Positions 2,552 through 40,742 of a DNA stretch of 64,000 nt are shown one piece after another. The translations under genes and the position numbers were made by a program. The stretch is taken from the NCBI GenBank assembly GCA_965205865.1, contig CBDBHR010000030.1, positions 1,184,001 to 1,248,000 on the forward strand. The letters run 5' to 3'. How positions within the stretch are numbered: the stretch's first letter is position 1; each line of letters starts with the position of its first letter. The stretch comes from a bacterium. Lineage in GTDB: Bacteria > SAR324 > NAC60-12. The notes below the pieces were generated by a model. That model was not told the origin of the DNA and did no database searches. It saw only the letters and a list, made by a program, of their open reading frames with translations.

Positions 2552-3084
2552 GGGGTCAGGCTTGCAAGTTTGCAAAAATGGGTATTCTTTAAATTTTAAC
2601 CTTTTTCAATTTGCCAAGATGTCTCGGAAAACGCGTTTGTACGACCCTGGCACGCTTTATCATGTGACACTTCGAGTCAATGGGGGGCAACGTACTTTTC
2701 GATGGCAACGACTCTCGTCGTTTTTATCAGTCTTTGATTGGAAATCTGCAACAATCCGGGAAGTGGCAAATGCTCTCAATTGAGATGATTCTACTATCAG
2801 TCGTGGCGCGCATAAGTTGAGAGAAAGATTGAAGGAATTCACAAATCTCGATAGTCGTCCGCTTGAGTGTTGTTCCTCTGAAAATCGGGAAAAATAACTG
2901 TAGACCGTGGTAACCACGCCGGAAAATGCCTTCTATTTGCTGAATCCCAACACTTCACAGGGAGAATTTTGCTGATAAGAGGCACTAACACTCAAGAGGG
3001 AGACTATCCAAATCTCCAAGAGTGGTTAAAAGAACTCAACCTAAAAATGTTTTCTTAAATTCGCAAACTTGCAAGTCTGACCCC
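2552..3084 (+). mobile_element. Internally deleted Y1 (HUH, RAYT/IS200-like) transposase element with 22-bp terminal inverted repeats
   Basis: GGGGTCAGGCTTGCAAGTTTGC (2552-2573) vs GCAAACTTGCAAGTCTGACCCC (3063-3084), one mismatch. Internal remnant MSRKTRLYDPGTLYHVTLRVNGGQRTF from 2619. Confidence 0.75.
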
Positions 3085-3429: not shown

Positions 3430-6311
3430 TTGCGAGTAATCAATTCCTTGCCGTTGCGAAACGCTTTAGCGCTTTCAACGGTAGCCTTTACGCCACCTTT
3501 GGCACCCGGAGAAATCACGGAGAGCGCACGCGGTTTTTCCAGTACGATCTCGTTGTAAGCATCCTGCAAGTCCTTGATGGTAATTGCCTTCACTACTTCG
3601 ACTGCCTTCTGACGAGAATCGAAGTTGGGGTAGTCATTGCGCAGATCTTGCCAGAAGCGAGCAACTTTCTTACCCACATTCTGCGGAGGTTGGCTCAACT
3701 GAGCAATGGCCGCTTGTTTCAGCGGAGCCAGTTGTTCGTCAGTCATTGCGTCAAGAACCCCTTTGAAGACCCGCAAGAACTTGTCAGTGGCCGCTTCAAC
3801 TGCACTGGCATTTGCAGTTGGAGACTGCACAACAAAAATCAGGCCCATTGTGCGGTCGGTTAATTTGCCTGCCGCTTGCACAATGTAACCCAACTGCTGC
3901 TCGGTACGCAGGCTGCCGTAGTACGGCTGGTGCATAATCCGGCTTAGCAGATACAGTGTAAAATCCTCTTCGCGGGTGCTCTCGCGGCCCTGGTAGTAAC
4001 GGAATACTGCAGCATCGGTGTGAGCAATCTTGGAAATGTACACGTCGCGCTTGTCGTTTGACTCATTCAAACGAACAACGCGCATGCCTTTGGGAATGTC
4101 TCGGTTCGTCGCTTTCAGGCCCAGGGTTTTGCGAATACGCTGTGCGAAATCACGAGACTGTTGTTCCGTGATGTTACCGCTGGCCATCATTTGCATACGA
4201 CCCTCACCATACAGCCATCCGGGTACTTTCAACACTTTTTCCAGAGTAATGCCCTCTACCACTTTGCGAATGTCTTCAATGGCGAAACTGTCTGCATCCA
4301 GCAACTCATCCAGGTCTCTGCCAACACCCTGGGTTGGAGTCACTTTGTCGTAGTTTTTTAAATTACGCTGTAACTGTTCCATCAAACGCCGGTACTGCTG
4401 TTCCGTAAAACGAGGCTTCAATACTTCGGACAGCACCTGATCAGACAACTGCGGCAGTTTGTCCGAGTAGCCACTGAAGGAAACGCCGTCGGCACCGAAG
4501 TTATAGGCAACGCCGGCGCGATTGGCGTTGTAGCTCAAATCCTGCAGCTGCTCTCCCATCAAGCCAAAGTAAACCTGTGACAGCAGGTCCTCTTCCAGAG
4601 TCGTACGCTCCGGACGGTCAATAGCCAATTGTATAGTTGCACGGGGGATTTTGTCTTCGATATCGGGGTAGTGCCAGATCTCCATACCTTCGGTATTGGC
4701 CAGTTTGACCGGCTGCTCGACAGTAACCACGTCCACCAGGTCAAAGTTTTCCGGGATCAGCGGGTTGCGCTCGGCCAGCTTCAGGTCACTGTACTGGGAA
4801 ACGCTCCAGCTTTTGACGCGATCAGTACCGGGTTGATAAGTGCGGTAGTCAGCACCGTAGAACCTGGTTTCCAGCTCCGGTTCAACACTTGGCGCAACCA
4901 GGGTTATCACCATATTGTCCAGGCGCAGCTCCGCCAATACATTGTTGATCAGTTTGCTGTCAAATTTCTTAAAACCGGAACCCAGCAGGTCACGAGGCAG
5001 GGTTTCCTGCAATGCATTGGCAAAATCGAACGCATCCTGCTTATCGAGGGGCCTGTTCTCGGCAAAGCGGAAGCTCATCTCGGAAAGGTTTTTAATCTCG
5101 TTGTAGCGCCATTCTTTCACGCCTTCACGTTTAACCAATTCAATCTGGTCAAACAATGCGGCAATGATCTCGTCCTGATGTTCCATCCCGGTTTCAGTCA
5201 GGGTAACAGCCAGAATAAAGCTGTCGTTGGCGCCATAGCTAATGCCTCCGGAAGCCTGAAAATTCTCAATCCAGCCCTTGGCCTTCAAACGGTCGCTGAG
5301 GCTGTCATCACTCTCGGAGGTCAGCATAGCGGCAACAAAGCCAACCGGGTTTTCCTGCTTGTACTCTTTCTGAGAAGGCAGTGGGAAGGTCAACTGTAAT
5401 GCACGAAACTCTTGTACCGGTTTGATTTCGATCACTTTCGGCAGTTCACCCGCGGCAAACAGTGGCGGAAAATGGGTTTCCGGAATATCTTTCAGCGTGG
5501 GTACCGCCTCAAATTTGGCGCGGGCCAGTTTTTCCAGTTCATCCGGAGACTGGTTACTTACCAACGTCAGCGCCATAATATCGGAGCTGTAGTACGTCTT
5601 GTAAAACTCGACCAGTATATCGCGGGCCTTGGCGTCCGGCTTATCAGACAGTGTTTCCAGCGTTCCGTTATTAAATTTATACGCCGGGTGCGCTTTGTCG
5701 ATGGTGTTTTCGAACACTTCGATATAGCGAATGTCATCGTTTTCGATACGGGTGAAGTATTCGGAGTGCACCGCATTCTTCTCGCGATCAACATAATTCC
5801 CGGTGAACAACGGCGTAATAAAGAACTGGGCAAAACGATCCACTGTACCTTCGTAGCCACCGTTATCCACTGAGAAATAATAGTTGGTGAATTCATATTC
5901 GGTGTAGGCGTTATGAGAGCCGCCGTGAGAATTCAAGAACTCAGAGTATTCATTGGGTTCCGGGTACTTTTCGGTACCCAAAAAAAGCATGTGCTCAAGA
6001 AAGTGCGCCAGACCATCCCAGCCTTCCGGATCCTGGAAACTGCCGACTTTAACATTCAGGGAAGCAAGGGATTTGACCGCATTGGTGTCAGAGATCAGCA
6101 ACACCTTCATACCGTTGTCCAACTGTATGTAACGATATTCTTTGGTATCCAGCGGGAAGCTGCTTACCACATAGGCGGATGCATCTTCGATGCGACTGGT
6201 ATCAGCCTCTTTCTCGATCGCCATGGTCGAACCACTGCAAAGGACTATCAGACCAAGGGTGAGGGCCAACAAAATTGCACTGAGTTTAGAGTTGATTTTA
6301 TGACGGTTCAT
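3426..6311 (-). CDS. Secreted M16 (insulinase/pitrilysin-like) zinc metallopeptidase
   Basis: Signal peptide, HFLEH inverted zinc motif, NAYT, and C-terminal LRTEQQLGY. Confidence 0.93.
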   Translation of the reverse strand: MNRHKINSKLSAILLALTLGLIVLCSGSTMAIEKEADTSRIEDASAYVVSSFPLDTKEYRYIQLDNGMKVLLISDTNAVKSLASLNVKVGSFQDPEGWDGLAHFLEHMLFLGTEKYPEPNEYSEFLNSHGGSHNAYTEYEFTNYYFSVDNGGYEGTVDRFAQFFITPLFTGNYVDREKNAVHSEYFTRIENDDIRYIEVFENTIDKAHPAYKFNNGTLETLSDKPDAKARDILVEFYKTYYSSDIMALTLVSNQSPDELEKLARAKFEAVPTLKDIPETHFPPLFAAGELPKVIEIKPVQEFRALQLTFPLPSQKEYKQENPVGFVAAMLTSESDDSLSDRLKAKGWIENFQASGGISYGANDSFILAVTLTETGMEHQDEIIAALFDQIELVKREGVKEWRYNEIKNLSEMSFRFAENRPLDKQDAFDFANALQETLPRDLLGSGFKKFDSKLINNVLAELRLDNMVITLVAPSVEPELETRFYGADYRTYQPGTDRVKSWSVSQYSDLKLAERNPLIPENFDLVDVVTVEQPVKLANTEGMEIWHYPDIEDKIPRATIQLAIDRPERTTLEEDLLSQVYFGLMGEQLQDLSYNANRAGVAYNFGADGVSFSGYSDKLPQLSDQVLSEVLKPRFTEQQYRRLMEQLQRNLKNYDKVTPTQGVGRDLDELLDADSFAIEDIRKVVEGITLEKVLKVPGWLYGEGRMQMMASGNITEQQSRDFAQRIRKTLGLKATNRDIPKGMRVVRLNESNDKRDVYISKIAHTDAAVFRYYQGRESTREEDFTLYLLSRIMHQPYYGSLRTEQQLGYIVQAAGKLTDRTMGLIFVVQSPTANASAVEAATDKFLRVFKGVLDAMTDEQLAPLKQAAIAQLSQPPQNVGKKVARFWQDLRNDYPNFDSRQKAVEVVKAITIKDLQDAYNEIVLEKPRALSVISPGAKGGVKATVESAKAFRNGKELITRN

Positions 6312-21888: not shown

Positions 21889-21901
21889 TTGGGGTCAGGC
21901 T

Positions 21902-23500
21902 GTGCGCCAGGAAAGCTGGCAAGAAATAGAGAGTGAAAGTCTCTTACTCGGTAAGGCAGTAACGACCCGCCGAGTCCCCGAGTCATGAGTGGTTATTCGC
22001 AAGGATAGGCGCTAAGCGTTGACAGGGGAGAACATAGGCTCGGTATTGAGCTCCGAAATCATAGTCTCAGGCGCTGACCTTGTGGTCTGGTGGGGAAGGC
22101 AATATCAACCGAAGGCGTTAGCGTGAGTCTCGGCTGAGCCTGGCGGAGTCAAAGACCCGGTGCATGTGTGGAAGTTTCTTGATCGGAACCTGGGAGATCC
22201 TGAAGACGACTGTCAACATTCTATTGGTAGTCGGATCGGGAAAATTAATAAATAACCCCGATATCTACGTCTTCAGGAAGTCGGACAAGTTCGTAGTAGC
22301 GTGAGCAGCCGACAAGGCTGTGGATTTTGGAGAGTGAAAGTCTCTCTGTCGTCAGTTTCCCATTCGGGCGACTAGCATATCCGGTGCGCTTAGCAGGTAA
22401 CTGCTTTGCGTTCTGCCCGGAAGTAAAAGTCACCGTCTGCTTTGGACGAGAGTCCATAGTGGGAGCCAACAGGGTGGCGAGCAAACCTGGAGGCCTGAAC
22501 ATTAGTGAATGATTGCAGCTCCGAAAGAGACTTCCGTCGTGAATTGGCTTGACGGTGTGTTGCCCAACCGCCGACCCGCTCGCTACTCGGGGAAGGCCGA
22601 AGTTCCAAGGGAAGTAATGGGAACAGGCACCTTGGAGGGAGCCGGAGTATGGATCCAAGCATCCAGGGAAAGATCCACAGAGATAACGTCGGGAAGGGCC
22701 AACTTCCAGCAGGGACTCGCAATAACCTGCAAGGACCTACCGTATAGGGTAACACCGAAATCGGCAGGAGGATTTTGGTCTGGCGCATGAGTCCGTATGA
22801 GCGATGAAGACCGGGTAACGCTGGTCGAGGGGATGCTTGGACATCTCCCTTTTGGAGGTAACACCTCTAAAAGGCAAAGGGGCTCTCGGTAAATGGCGGG
22901 CATTTCATGAACCACTGCCGAACTTGTGTCGGTCAAGAGTGTCACCACAAAGAATGTCGAGCTGGAGATCAAATCACTCACTCCAGGGGTGAATGCAGGC
23001 GAGTGCTTAAGCTTCGGATTGGGTGGGAAGGGTTTCTGGGGAAACGCTGTTGCTGCCAACCGGACTCGGGAAATCCGACCGTCCGGGATGAGAGGGGGGC
23101 TTGCGGAAACGTGATGCAGGGTCTGACGCCCTTTTGCCACGAAACCGGAAACGGGGGATACATTGGAAGTCGTTGACCTAAACATGCGCGCGCCGTATTT
23201 CTACCCGGCATGAAGCGGCGAACAATGAGATCATTTGCAGAGAGTAACAATGCAAAGGAAATCAACGGAGCCTGTGGAGCAAAGGGACTTGGCTGAGAGG
23301 AATTCTGCTTGCCCTCCTGTGTTCGGAACTCAGAGGCCGTAAAATCAGAGAGCGGTTTAAGCAGGGTGCGCCAAACGGCAACGTTTGAGCGTCTGACTCG
23401 AAGCAGGAGCCGGATGCGTTAGCAGCGCACGTCCGGATCTGTACCGGAGGAATGACGAAAGGTGGCTGGAAACCACTATAAGTCAGTTCTTTACGGTGAC
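21902..23500 (+). mobile_element. Group II intron (IIB-like) with its IEP ORF deleted, interrupted in domain III
   Basis: 5' GTGCG; EBS1 GGTCTG at 22084-22089; domain V GAGCCGGATGCG..CGCACGTCCGGATC at 23407-23439; domain VI with bulged A 23493; ends ...GAC at 23500. Confidence 0.9.
22301..23209 (+). mobile_element. Inner ORF-less group II intron (twintron)
   Basis: 5' GTGAG; EBS1 GCTACT at 22582-22587; domain V CAACCGGACTCGGGAAATCCGACCGTCCGGGATG at 23057-23090; long domain VI ending CTACCCGGC. Boundaries uncertain by about 1 nt. Confidence 0.85.
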
Positions 23501-23691
23501 TGCATACTTGTATTTAAATCGTGAAATGCCACTCAGACAAAGGACTGAGACTTTGTTCCTTTCTGAGACCTTCCTTGCTGAACAGACAACGCATTGCTTT
23601 TCAAACCTAGATGAGAGTCAATCTTCAGATAGATGAAAAACTCATGCACTTTAGACAATTTCTTAATACAAATACCCCAGCCTGCCCCCAT

Positions 23692-40334: not shown

Positions 40335-40742
40335 AGTCCCTGAGGGACGAAAGGAAGTAGCCCAGCGATTCATCGCTGGGAACAAAAGATAGTCTCCTTC
40401 AAAGTCCCGGAGGGACGATACAACAATGAGGTTTCATGTCCCATTCCTACATCAGCAATCATCTTCATGGTGTCTTTTGCGCAAAAAACCGAGTTGAGAT
40501 GATGACTCCTGAAATCAAAAAGCGCCTTTTTCCTTATTTGACATCATGAGCGTTATATTTGGGAGTAACTCGCTGGATCGAAGAAGTGTCGTCCCTCCGG
40601 GACTAGCTGAGGAGGAGGGGGGTTCCTTTCCCAGCGATGAATCGCTGGGCTATTCCCTTTCGTCCCTCTGGGACTAGCTGAGGAGGGGGTTCCTTTCCCA
40701 GCGATGAATCGCTGGGCTATTCCCTTTCGTCCCTCCAGGACT
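40335..40742. mobile_element. REP-like inverted repeats flanking a deleted IS200/RAYT-like Y1 tnpA remnant (40436-40568)
   Basis: GTCCC..GGGAC and CCCAGCGA..TCGCTGGG palindromes in opposite orientations. Remnant MSHSYISNHLHGVFCAKNR...PYL / ERYIWE*. Confidence 0.75.

Follow-up and report, generated by a model that had tools for sequence, protein, structure and literature searches.

The stretch of DNA analysed here, hereafter the window, comprises 64,000 nt (C30:1184001-1248000) of the 4.74-Mb, 30-contig assembly of a bacterium of the SAR324 lineage. A group II intron is inserted at the tip of an inverted repeat of a short MITE in the window, and an internally deleted Y1 element with unoccupied ends is present upstream of it. 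The features on which the analysis is based are as follows.

2552-3084, no strand assigned: internally deleted Y1 element of 533 bp, both ends of which are empty target sites
2552-2562, plus strand: first empty site of the 533-bp element, GGGGTCAGGCT
3074-3084, minus strand: second empty site of the 533-bp element, reverse complement GGGGTCAGACT
21891-21901, plus strand: 5' exon GGGGTCAGGCT, which makes up the outer 11 nt at the left inverted repeat of a ~200-bp MITE
21896-21901, plus strand: IBS1 CAGGCT, part of the 5' exon GGGGTCAGGCT
21902-23500, plus strand: outer group II intron of 1599 nt, a 692-nt ORF-deleted form with a 908-nt inner element (twintron)
21936-22158, plus strand: domain 1 core of the outer intron, RF02005 (group II D1-D4), 168.1 bits, gathering score 49
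22084-22089, plus strand: EBS1 GGUCUG, within the 9-nt loop that caps a D1 hairpin in the RF02005 alignment
22302-23209, plus strand: inner intron-like element of 908 nt with the ends TGAGC...CCGGC, ~40 nt upstream of the start codon of the IEP remnant
23250-23378, plus strand: what is left of the IEP frame (MQRKSTEPVEQ...), ending at the ORF deletion point, from comparison with the full-length protein
23405-23500, plus strand: domains 5-6 and 3' end (...UUUACGGUGAC), RF00029
23501-23689, plus strand: 3' exon, the remainder of the host MITE, with a degenerate right end

The consensus ends of group II introns are GUGYG at the 5' side and AY at the 3' side. The outer intron starts with GTGCG at 21902 and closes with GGTGAC at 23500 (the last letters up to this position being TTTACGGTGAC), with TGCATACTTG following; the GUGCG and GAC termini agree with the consensus and recur in other copies. 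When the flanks are rejoined without 21902-23500, GGGGTCAGGCT is followed by TGCA and the result is identical to 2552-2566 over 15 nt, which bears out the original prediction that removal of the intron restores the sequence of a terminal inverted repeat (TIR). The score of the domain 1 core, well above the RF02005 gathering score, indicates a domain 1 fold in the window copy. RF00029 (D5-D6) spans its full length at 23405-23500, with a score of 31.0 bits (E 0.0014) that lies below the gathering score of 40, and candidate D5-D6 features noted by eye are a GAGC...hairpin and UUUACGGU.

The right end of the host MITE (23679-23689, reverse complement GGGGGCAGGCT) carries one mismatch in its outer 11 nt and 8 in the 20 nt of its inner part, and the interior of the MITE is similar to an empty end at C30:388282. 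In the 533-bp element, an N-terminal remnant of the Y1 protein is seen by eye from 2620 onwards (MSRKTRLYDPGTLYHV...). The window additionally contains three copies of the Acido-Lenti-1 RNA motif (RF01687) at 40335-40380 (minus strand), 40630-40675 (plus strand) and 40697-40742 (plus strand), scoring 51-54 bits against a gathering score of 37.

Contigs from four public runs, two of them labelled RNA, were mapped to the region; all of these contigs stop at the repeat borders (21888, 21896-21903). No contig spans the 5' junction or connects 21901 with 23501, and the runs are thus uninformative on splicing and on empty alleles. Position 22301 is joined directly to 23210 in the contigs of all four runs, and 22302-23209 is therefore an insert in the 692-nt form; the strength of this joint stems from the common 692-nt form of the other copies. 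An extra G behind 23338 is also present in the contigs of all four runs, and, from comparison of the sequences, the window copy is read as having a 1-nt deletion in its remnant IEP frame relative to most copies. The inner element occurs in four full copies that are 99.9-100% identical (three identical and one with a single-base difference), and all four occupy one and the same position within outer introns at four different loci. Its resemblance to group II domain 1 is weak (RF02003, 33.2 bits, gathering score 49) and its ends, TGAGC...CCGGC, are non-canonical. Over the whole genome, neither a free-standing full copy nor a cognate ORF of the inner element was seen; a fragment of 196 nt is found at C29:45405. 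The simplest reading of these copies is one insertion event, after which the whole twintron would have moved as a unit.

Intron copies were collected from the genome with an 18-nt anchor, allowing up to two substitutions. This search found 42 5' ends and 40 3' ends, and 32 of the former were matched to a 3' end within 6 kb, one such pairing being spurious. The commonest form measures 692 nt (10 copies, with several more of 689-703 nt), four copies of 1957 nt hold open frames of 473-477 codons, a fifth long copy of 2039 nt is broken, and others are truncated or internally deleted (228, 315 and 583 nt). Overall the copies are 97-100% alike. The protein encoded by the four 1957-nt copies (IEP, 470 aa) is an RT/maturase, with 342.7 bits for TIGR04416 (group II RT/maturase, cutoff 300) and 127.4 bits for RVT_1. 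RVT_1 is the sole Pfam family reported for this protein; no endonuclease family was found in it, and little of the frame follows the maturase region. A whole-genome search recovered the four intact IEP copies, 99-100% identical to one another, together with six IEP fragments of 79-99% identity.

Only the first ~43 IEP codons are retained in the window copy, and in the full-length copies the alignment of the 3' query starts at query base 29. Because these first codons are kept, the 692-nt form is taken to have arisen by ORF deletion; shuffled sequences are predicted to fold less stably than this form (z -3.0). In a search of solved structures with the IEP, the best match was the IIC-type RT 7uim (E 1.4e-43), the scores for IIC (152.7 bits), IIB (133.1 bits) and IIA (130.5 bits) structures being too close for an intron class to follow. 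Other RT genes with 35-41% identity to the IEP, at C30:878628-879896, C15:7754-8446, C25:24311-25003 and C26:166504-167199, indicate that additional group II introns or RTs, unrelated to this family, are probably present in the genome. Two intron copies stand head to tail at C26:239009-239711 and from 239712 onward, the second beginning right after the GAC of the first. The copies at C28:358767 and C29:409363 share an identical 30-nt 5' flank and have different 3' flanks, one of them being only 228 nt long, a pattern that suggests possible recombination between dispersed intron copies.

The 11-mer in front of the intron is a component of a transposon superfamily. In the genome it bounds 33 exact inverted pairs, 52-1206 bp apart, with A-rich bases preceding each end and no target duplications found at any of the 33 pairs. 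The pairs that span 52-87 bp or about 367 bp have no coding sequence; copies of 1033-1206 bp encode a frame of ~310 aa that scores 53.8 bits for PF01797 (Y1_Tnp, cutoff 23) and 32.7 bits for Bac_DnaA_C, a DnaA-like HTH at the C-terminus. With this score, and with the motifs HVH and GRYK seen by eye, the transposase is assigned to the Y1 (HUH) group; its score of 71.1 bits for NCBIfam NF047646 is below the cutoff of 80 and it is not classed as a RAYT in the strict sense. The occurrence of short non-coding and longer coding copies with inverted ends at many loci, among them three copies of 1048 bp with different flanks, identifies the group as MITEs and transposons. Several families are distinguished by the repeat sequence that follows inward of the shared 11-mer and reads TTTGATTA..., TGCAAGTTTGC..., TGCATA..., TGAAAGTTTG..., TCGTTA... 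or TGYGAC.... The 11-mer was also considered as half of a free-standing palindromic target; no match to such a palindrome exists in the genome, and the 11-mer is thus the element's own tip.

A segment of less than 30 kb at C29:716900-746100 contains five co-oriented Y1 elements of the TGAAAG family whose 335-codon frames are open, and two of the five carry the intron in the promoter-proximal repeat, co-oriented with the transposase gene, one of these introns being full-length with the IEP. Tandem 12-nt duplications of the form NNNN-GGGGTCAR-NNNN-GGGGTCAG were noted seven times just outside element ends, for example at C10:101534 (minus strand), C30:451355 (plus strand) and C29:78701 (minus strand); they may be footprints of transposition chemistry.

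According to the original prediction, the intron has its target in the terminal repeat of a multicopy Y1-transposase family. Tabulation of the upstream flanks and counting of filled and empty sites, the check proposed with this prediction, gave 32 of 42 5' flanks within one mismatch of GGGGTCAGGCY, 23 being exact and nine having a single mismatch. Six further flanks have two mismatches, one has three and two have four, and a single flank is unrelated, belonging to a tandem copy directly behind another intron; the 10 flanks with at least two mismatches are counted against the homing model proposed below. A scatter of the copies over unrelated flanks, the outcome that would contradict targeting, was not found among the 42 5' flanks. 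Exact GGGGTCAGRCY sites number 141 in the genome, of which 24 are filled and 117 empty, and the latter include both ends of the element at 2552-3084, as predicted for these two TIRs. The 11-mer GGGGTCAGRCT occurs 79 times genome-wide compared with four times for its reversed control, and three times in the window, where 0.04 is expected and none of 100 shuffles got to three. With the 11-mer forming the outer end of the 33 inverted pairs, and with autonomous members that encode a Y1_Tnp protein, the claim of targeting is well supported.

The hexamer CAGGCY occupies positions -6 to -1 in 35 of the 42 flanks. It occurs at 4467 sites in the genome, only 138 of which are preceded by GGGGT, and pairing with EBS1 alone therefore cannot explain the enrichment of the 11-mer in the flanks. 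At the last exon base, 26 of the 42 flanks carry T and the other 16 carry C, and the empty sites are divided into 63 with GGCT and 51 with GGCC. Sites of the A-type (CAGACT-like) account for three of the 141 exact sites, two of them GGGGTCAGACT and one GGGGTCAGACC, and one filled near-site of the CAGACT version is found at C23:92291. The flanks upstream of the intron copies are unique and A-rich, the intron being located on the 5' side of the element and not behind it. In 32 of the 42 copies the sense strand of the intron is the locally G-rich strand, a count that has to be read with the weak skew and the clustering of the copies in mind and that gives a weak hint of insertion into the lagging-strand template.

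Downstream of the intron, 23 of 30 3' exons fall within six element-end families, which together have 161 empty ends, and seven fall outside them. Occupancy differs between the families, from 1 of 36 TGCAAG ends to 13 of 75 TTTxAT ends, and this difference is likewise counted against homing. Among the TTTxAT ends, T is the last exon base in 6 of the 13 that are filled and in 5 of the 62 that are empty (Fisher p 0.0025). Extra decay of the filled ends was not detected in a comparison within one family, in which 5 of 12 filled and 26 of 39 empty ends are exact (Fisher p 0.18).

Such a distribution could also arise if the intron had entered one or a few elements and had subsequently been a passenger of the DNA-level transposition of the MITEs and transposons, and hitchhiking on the element had been part of the original prediction. 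Intron-bearing MITEs of 80 bp in which both outer ends still match the terminus exactly (C27:47788-48570 and C29:717336-718107 among them) and two filled autonomous elements with open 335-codon transposase frames are compatible with passive carriage of this kind. The intron may alternatively inactivate its element, as was also suggested; the two filled autonomous elements just mentioned still have open frames. However, 13 different 3'-exon 6-mers are represented among 28 copies, different intron variants are located at filled ends of the commonest MITE family, and the twintron, with its inner part 99.9-100% identical, is found in different 3' contexts. The similarity among the introns is moreover not structured by element family: the mean intron distance within families is not smaller, beyond chance, than that between families, with 2439 of 5000 shuffles of the labels giving a difference as large as the one observed. 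This part of the prediction is accordingly not upheld, and carriage by the element is considered very unlikely as the origin of the copies.

The basis of target recognition was examined in relatives of the bacterium. Among 61 genomes (its own and those of 60 relatives), the intron is present in its own genome, in one genome of the same genus (G001) and in one of another genus (G008), and a scan of the genomes of 185,579 species returned the same two; metagenome scans for the filled junction and for the 5' end of the intron gave 0 matches each. The EBS1 sequences and the corresponding exons in the three lineages are as follows.

Own genome: EBS1 GGUCUG, 5' exons CAGGCY; the first EBS1 base is A in 12 of 39 aligned copies
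G001, same genus: EBS1 AGCCUG, 5' exons CTGGCT, TGGGCT and CAGGCT
G008, other genus: EBS1 UGGCUG, 5' exons CAGCCA (twice) and CAACCA (once)

GGTCTG at 22084-22089 forms four Watson-Crick and two G-U pairs with CAGGCT, as had been predicted, and its position in a hairpin loop of the RF02005 alignment is that of an EBS1. EBS1 positions 1 and 3 covary with exon positions -1 and -3 across the three lineages, in agreement with EBS1-IBS1 pairing, and the compensatory changes in G001 and G008 fix the EBS1 assignment. The differences between the EBS1 of G001 and that of the window's genome are A to G and C to U, both of them to wobble-capable bases, and GGUCUG can thus read CAGGCU, CAGGCC, CAGACU and CAGACC. 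The suggestion that wobble pairing serves to recognise two versions of the element end stands in spirit, since both of these differences are of this kind, but the CAGACT version to which it referred is marginal, with 3 of 141 exact sites. The common polymorphism is at the last exon base, where T or C is opposed to the first EBS1 base G in a G-U or G-C pair, and it is mainly there, and not at the rare CAGACT, that wobble matters. Among the copies with A as the first EBS1 base, inspection by eye showed 3 of 10 usable ones at C-ending sites, an A-C mismatch, and the first EBS1 base was not associated with the last exon base, the A-variants being at seven T and three C and the G-variants at 15 T and 10 C. 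The two or three G-U pairs among the 6-7 pairs of EBS1 and IBS1 in the window's genome are also counted against homing.

The target in G008 was considered as the end of a repeat family; AGGACAGCCA has 22 matches there against 16 for the control and is not clearly enriched. A tandem array of units of about 30 nt, AAATAAAAGGACAGCCACTTATTTATCT, at 100-320 of L054 (on contig C27 of G008) contains the sequence of the 5' exon of the G008 intron. G001 has 42 exact sites and six intron copies, none of them at an exact site, and its IEP exists as a C-terminal fragment only; judged by its sequences, the intron family in G001 looks dead. In view of this fossil-like state, of the absence of the ORF from most copies in the window's genome and of the several truncated or internally deleted copies there (228, 315 and 583 nt), the copies analysed here might similarly be fossils of a past burst, with nothing now mobile. 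Such a relic nature is unlikely in the face of the four intact IEP frames of 99-100% identity, the many copies that are 99-100% identical over 399 nt and the identity of the twintron copies at four loci; the four intact IEPs and the identical copies suggest instead that the intron may have been active recently in the window's genome.

No EBS2 could be recognised: comparison of the window's genome, G001 and G008 yielded no covarying segment that would correspond to EBS2 or to an EBS3/delta pairing, and the internal loop 5' of the EBS1 hairpin has no consistent pairing. ACCCC at 22256-22260, complementary to GGGGT, was rejected as a candidate, being unchanged in G008, where the exons read AAGGA, and paired in the predicted fold. 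Endonuclease-less introns and Y1 transposases both act on single-stranded DNA of the lagging-strand template, and the intron might use single-stranded DNA or a nick made by the Y1 transposase at element ends, in which case the transposase would contribute no less than RNA pairing to the choice of site. This action common to both systems, the location of the insertion point within the part of the repeat that all families have in common, and the need for GGGGT without an EBS2 having been found would all be accommodated by help from the transposase. Against it, though only indirectly, the covariation of EBS1 shows ordinary RNA-DNA pairing at work, and other endonuclease-less introns need no such helper, according to the abstracts on RmInt1; transposase-assisted retrohoming is accordingly held to be hardly probable. 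Nearly as little credence is given to a mechanistic coupling of the intron with the Y1 transposon, in which single-stranded DNA or a nick made by the transposase at GGGGTCAGGCY ends would serve both for entry and for the priming of reverse transcription. If it were true, the surplus of filled ends with T as their last exon base would be the trace of an unusual integration path, and a retroelement would be borrowing the nuclease of a DNA transposon.

The preferred explanation, to which a probability of about 0.85 is assigned, is that the TIR tips of a Y1 (HUH) transposon and MITE superfamily are the retrohoming sites of a group II intron family without endonuclease. To the observed anatomy, site statistics, covariation and intact IEPs it adds reverse splicing, mobilisation in trans and priming at the replication fork, which we infer. 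Besides the points already counted against it, the D5-D6 score below the gathering score, the failure to find an EBS2, the seven 3' exons outside the six families and the A-C mismatches also speak against this explanation. The RT/maturase from the few full-length copies would bind the excised intron RNA, and this RNA would be reverse-spliced between GGGGTCAGGCY and the next base, usually T. Recognition would involve pairing of EBS1 ([G/A]GUCUG) with CAGGCY, and a further contact, from the RNA or the protein, would read GGGGT. With the endonuclease domain lacking, priming would probably be provided by the nascent strand at a replication fork. Mobilisation in trans would extend to the ORF-deleted copies and to the twintron, which would move as one unit. 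Each transposition of a host element would create new empty sites outside host genes, and the superfamily would thus constitute a renewable safe haven for the intron.

Introns of class IIC insert after a hairpin, either a terminator or an attC, and have a very short IBS1. Like the IIC and IIC-attC introns (the latter at integron attC sites), the family described here is a lineage specialised on a repeated, structured and non-coding motif, but its upstream flank is unique A-rich DNA and not a hairpin, and its IBS1 measures 6-7 nt. The IEPs of IIC and IIC-attC introns are described as endonuclease-less in an account which also states that bacterial group II introns often reside in other mobile DNA and that ORF-less introns are rare in bacteria (PMC4424553).

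RmInt1 of Sinorhizobium meliloti, as described in the abstracts, is endonuclease-less and homes into ISRm2011-2, using the lagging-strand template at the fork (PMC1802570, PMC8914252). It thus resembles the window intron in having an RT/maturase without endonuclease and a natural homing site in a multicopy mobile element; its site is inside one IS, whereas the window intron targets the outermost 11 nt of an inverted repeat common to at least six families, mostly of non-coding MITEs. For Thermosynechococcus elongatus, dozens of related TeI3/TeI4 copies are described, mostly ORF-less and mobilised by a few IEPs; twintrons are formed, and new sites are supplied by mobile elements into which these introns insert (PMC2882425). 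The window family is similar in its many close copies, mostly ORF-less, and its twintrons; TeI3/TeI4, as reported there, proliferated with target specificity diverging over many different sites, whereas the window family has retained a single conserved 11-mer and owes its breadth to EBS1 bases capable of G-U pairing, and no temperature effect is implied for the window intron. Proximity of introns to short extragenic repeats is also described for Pseudomonas putida KT2440, in which two of nine group II intron copies adjoin REP sequences (PMC1525189); no defined insertion point in the repeat is given there, whereas 32 of 42 copies are at one position here.

The host element, for its part, resembles RAYT/REPIN and IS200/IS605 systems in its Y1_Tnp domain, in the inverted short repeats around the gene, in the many short non-coding inverted doublets and in the absence of target duplication. 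It differs from RAYTs in its NCBIfam score below the cutoff, in its multicopy genes with a DnaA-like C-terminal HTH, and in comprising several families with different inner repeats. A full-text search, in which subscription journals were thinly covered and supplements were set aside, found no published group II intron homing into the TIR of a MITE or Y1 transposon family.

Introns that home into mobile DNA are already known, and the intron described here is an ordinary endonuclease-less group II intron in an unusual niche, a clear example, though one with precedents, of a mobile element that lives within another; the known mechanism of group II introns is unchanged by these findings. The family provides material on how ORF-less introns proliferate in bacteria, on what besides EBS1 reads the DNA target in endonuclease-less introns, and on the widening of target range through wobble-capable EBS1 bases, for which the sister species with AGCCUG, a broken IEP and six copies offers a comparison. 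As a case of layered parasitism in nature it is unusually clean: the retroelement has become a specialist for the one short sequence with which none of the transposon families can dispense, a target that is multicopy, lies outside host genes and is renewed whenever the transposon moves.
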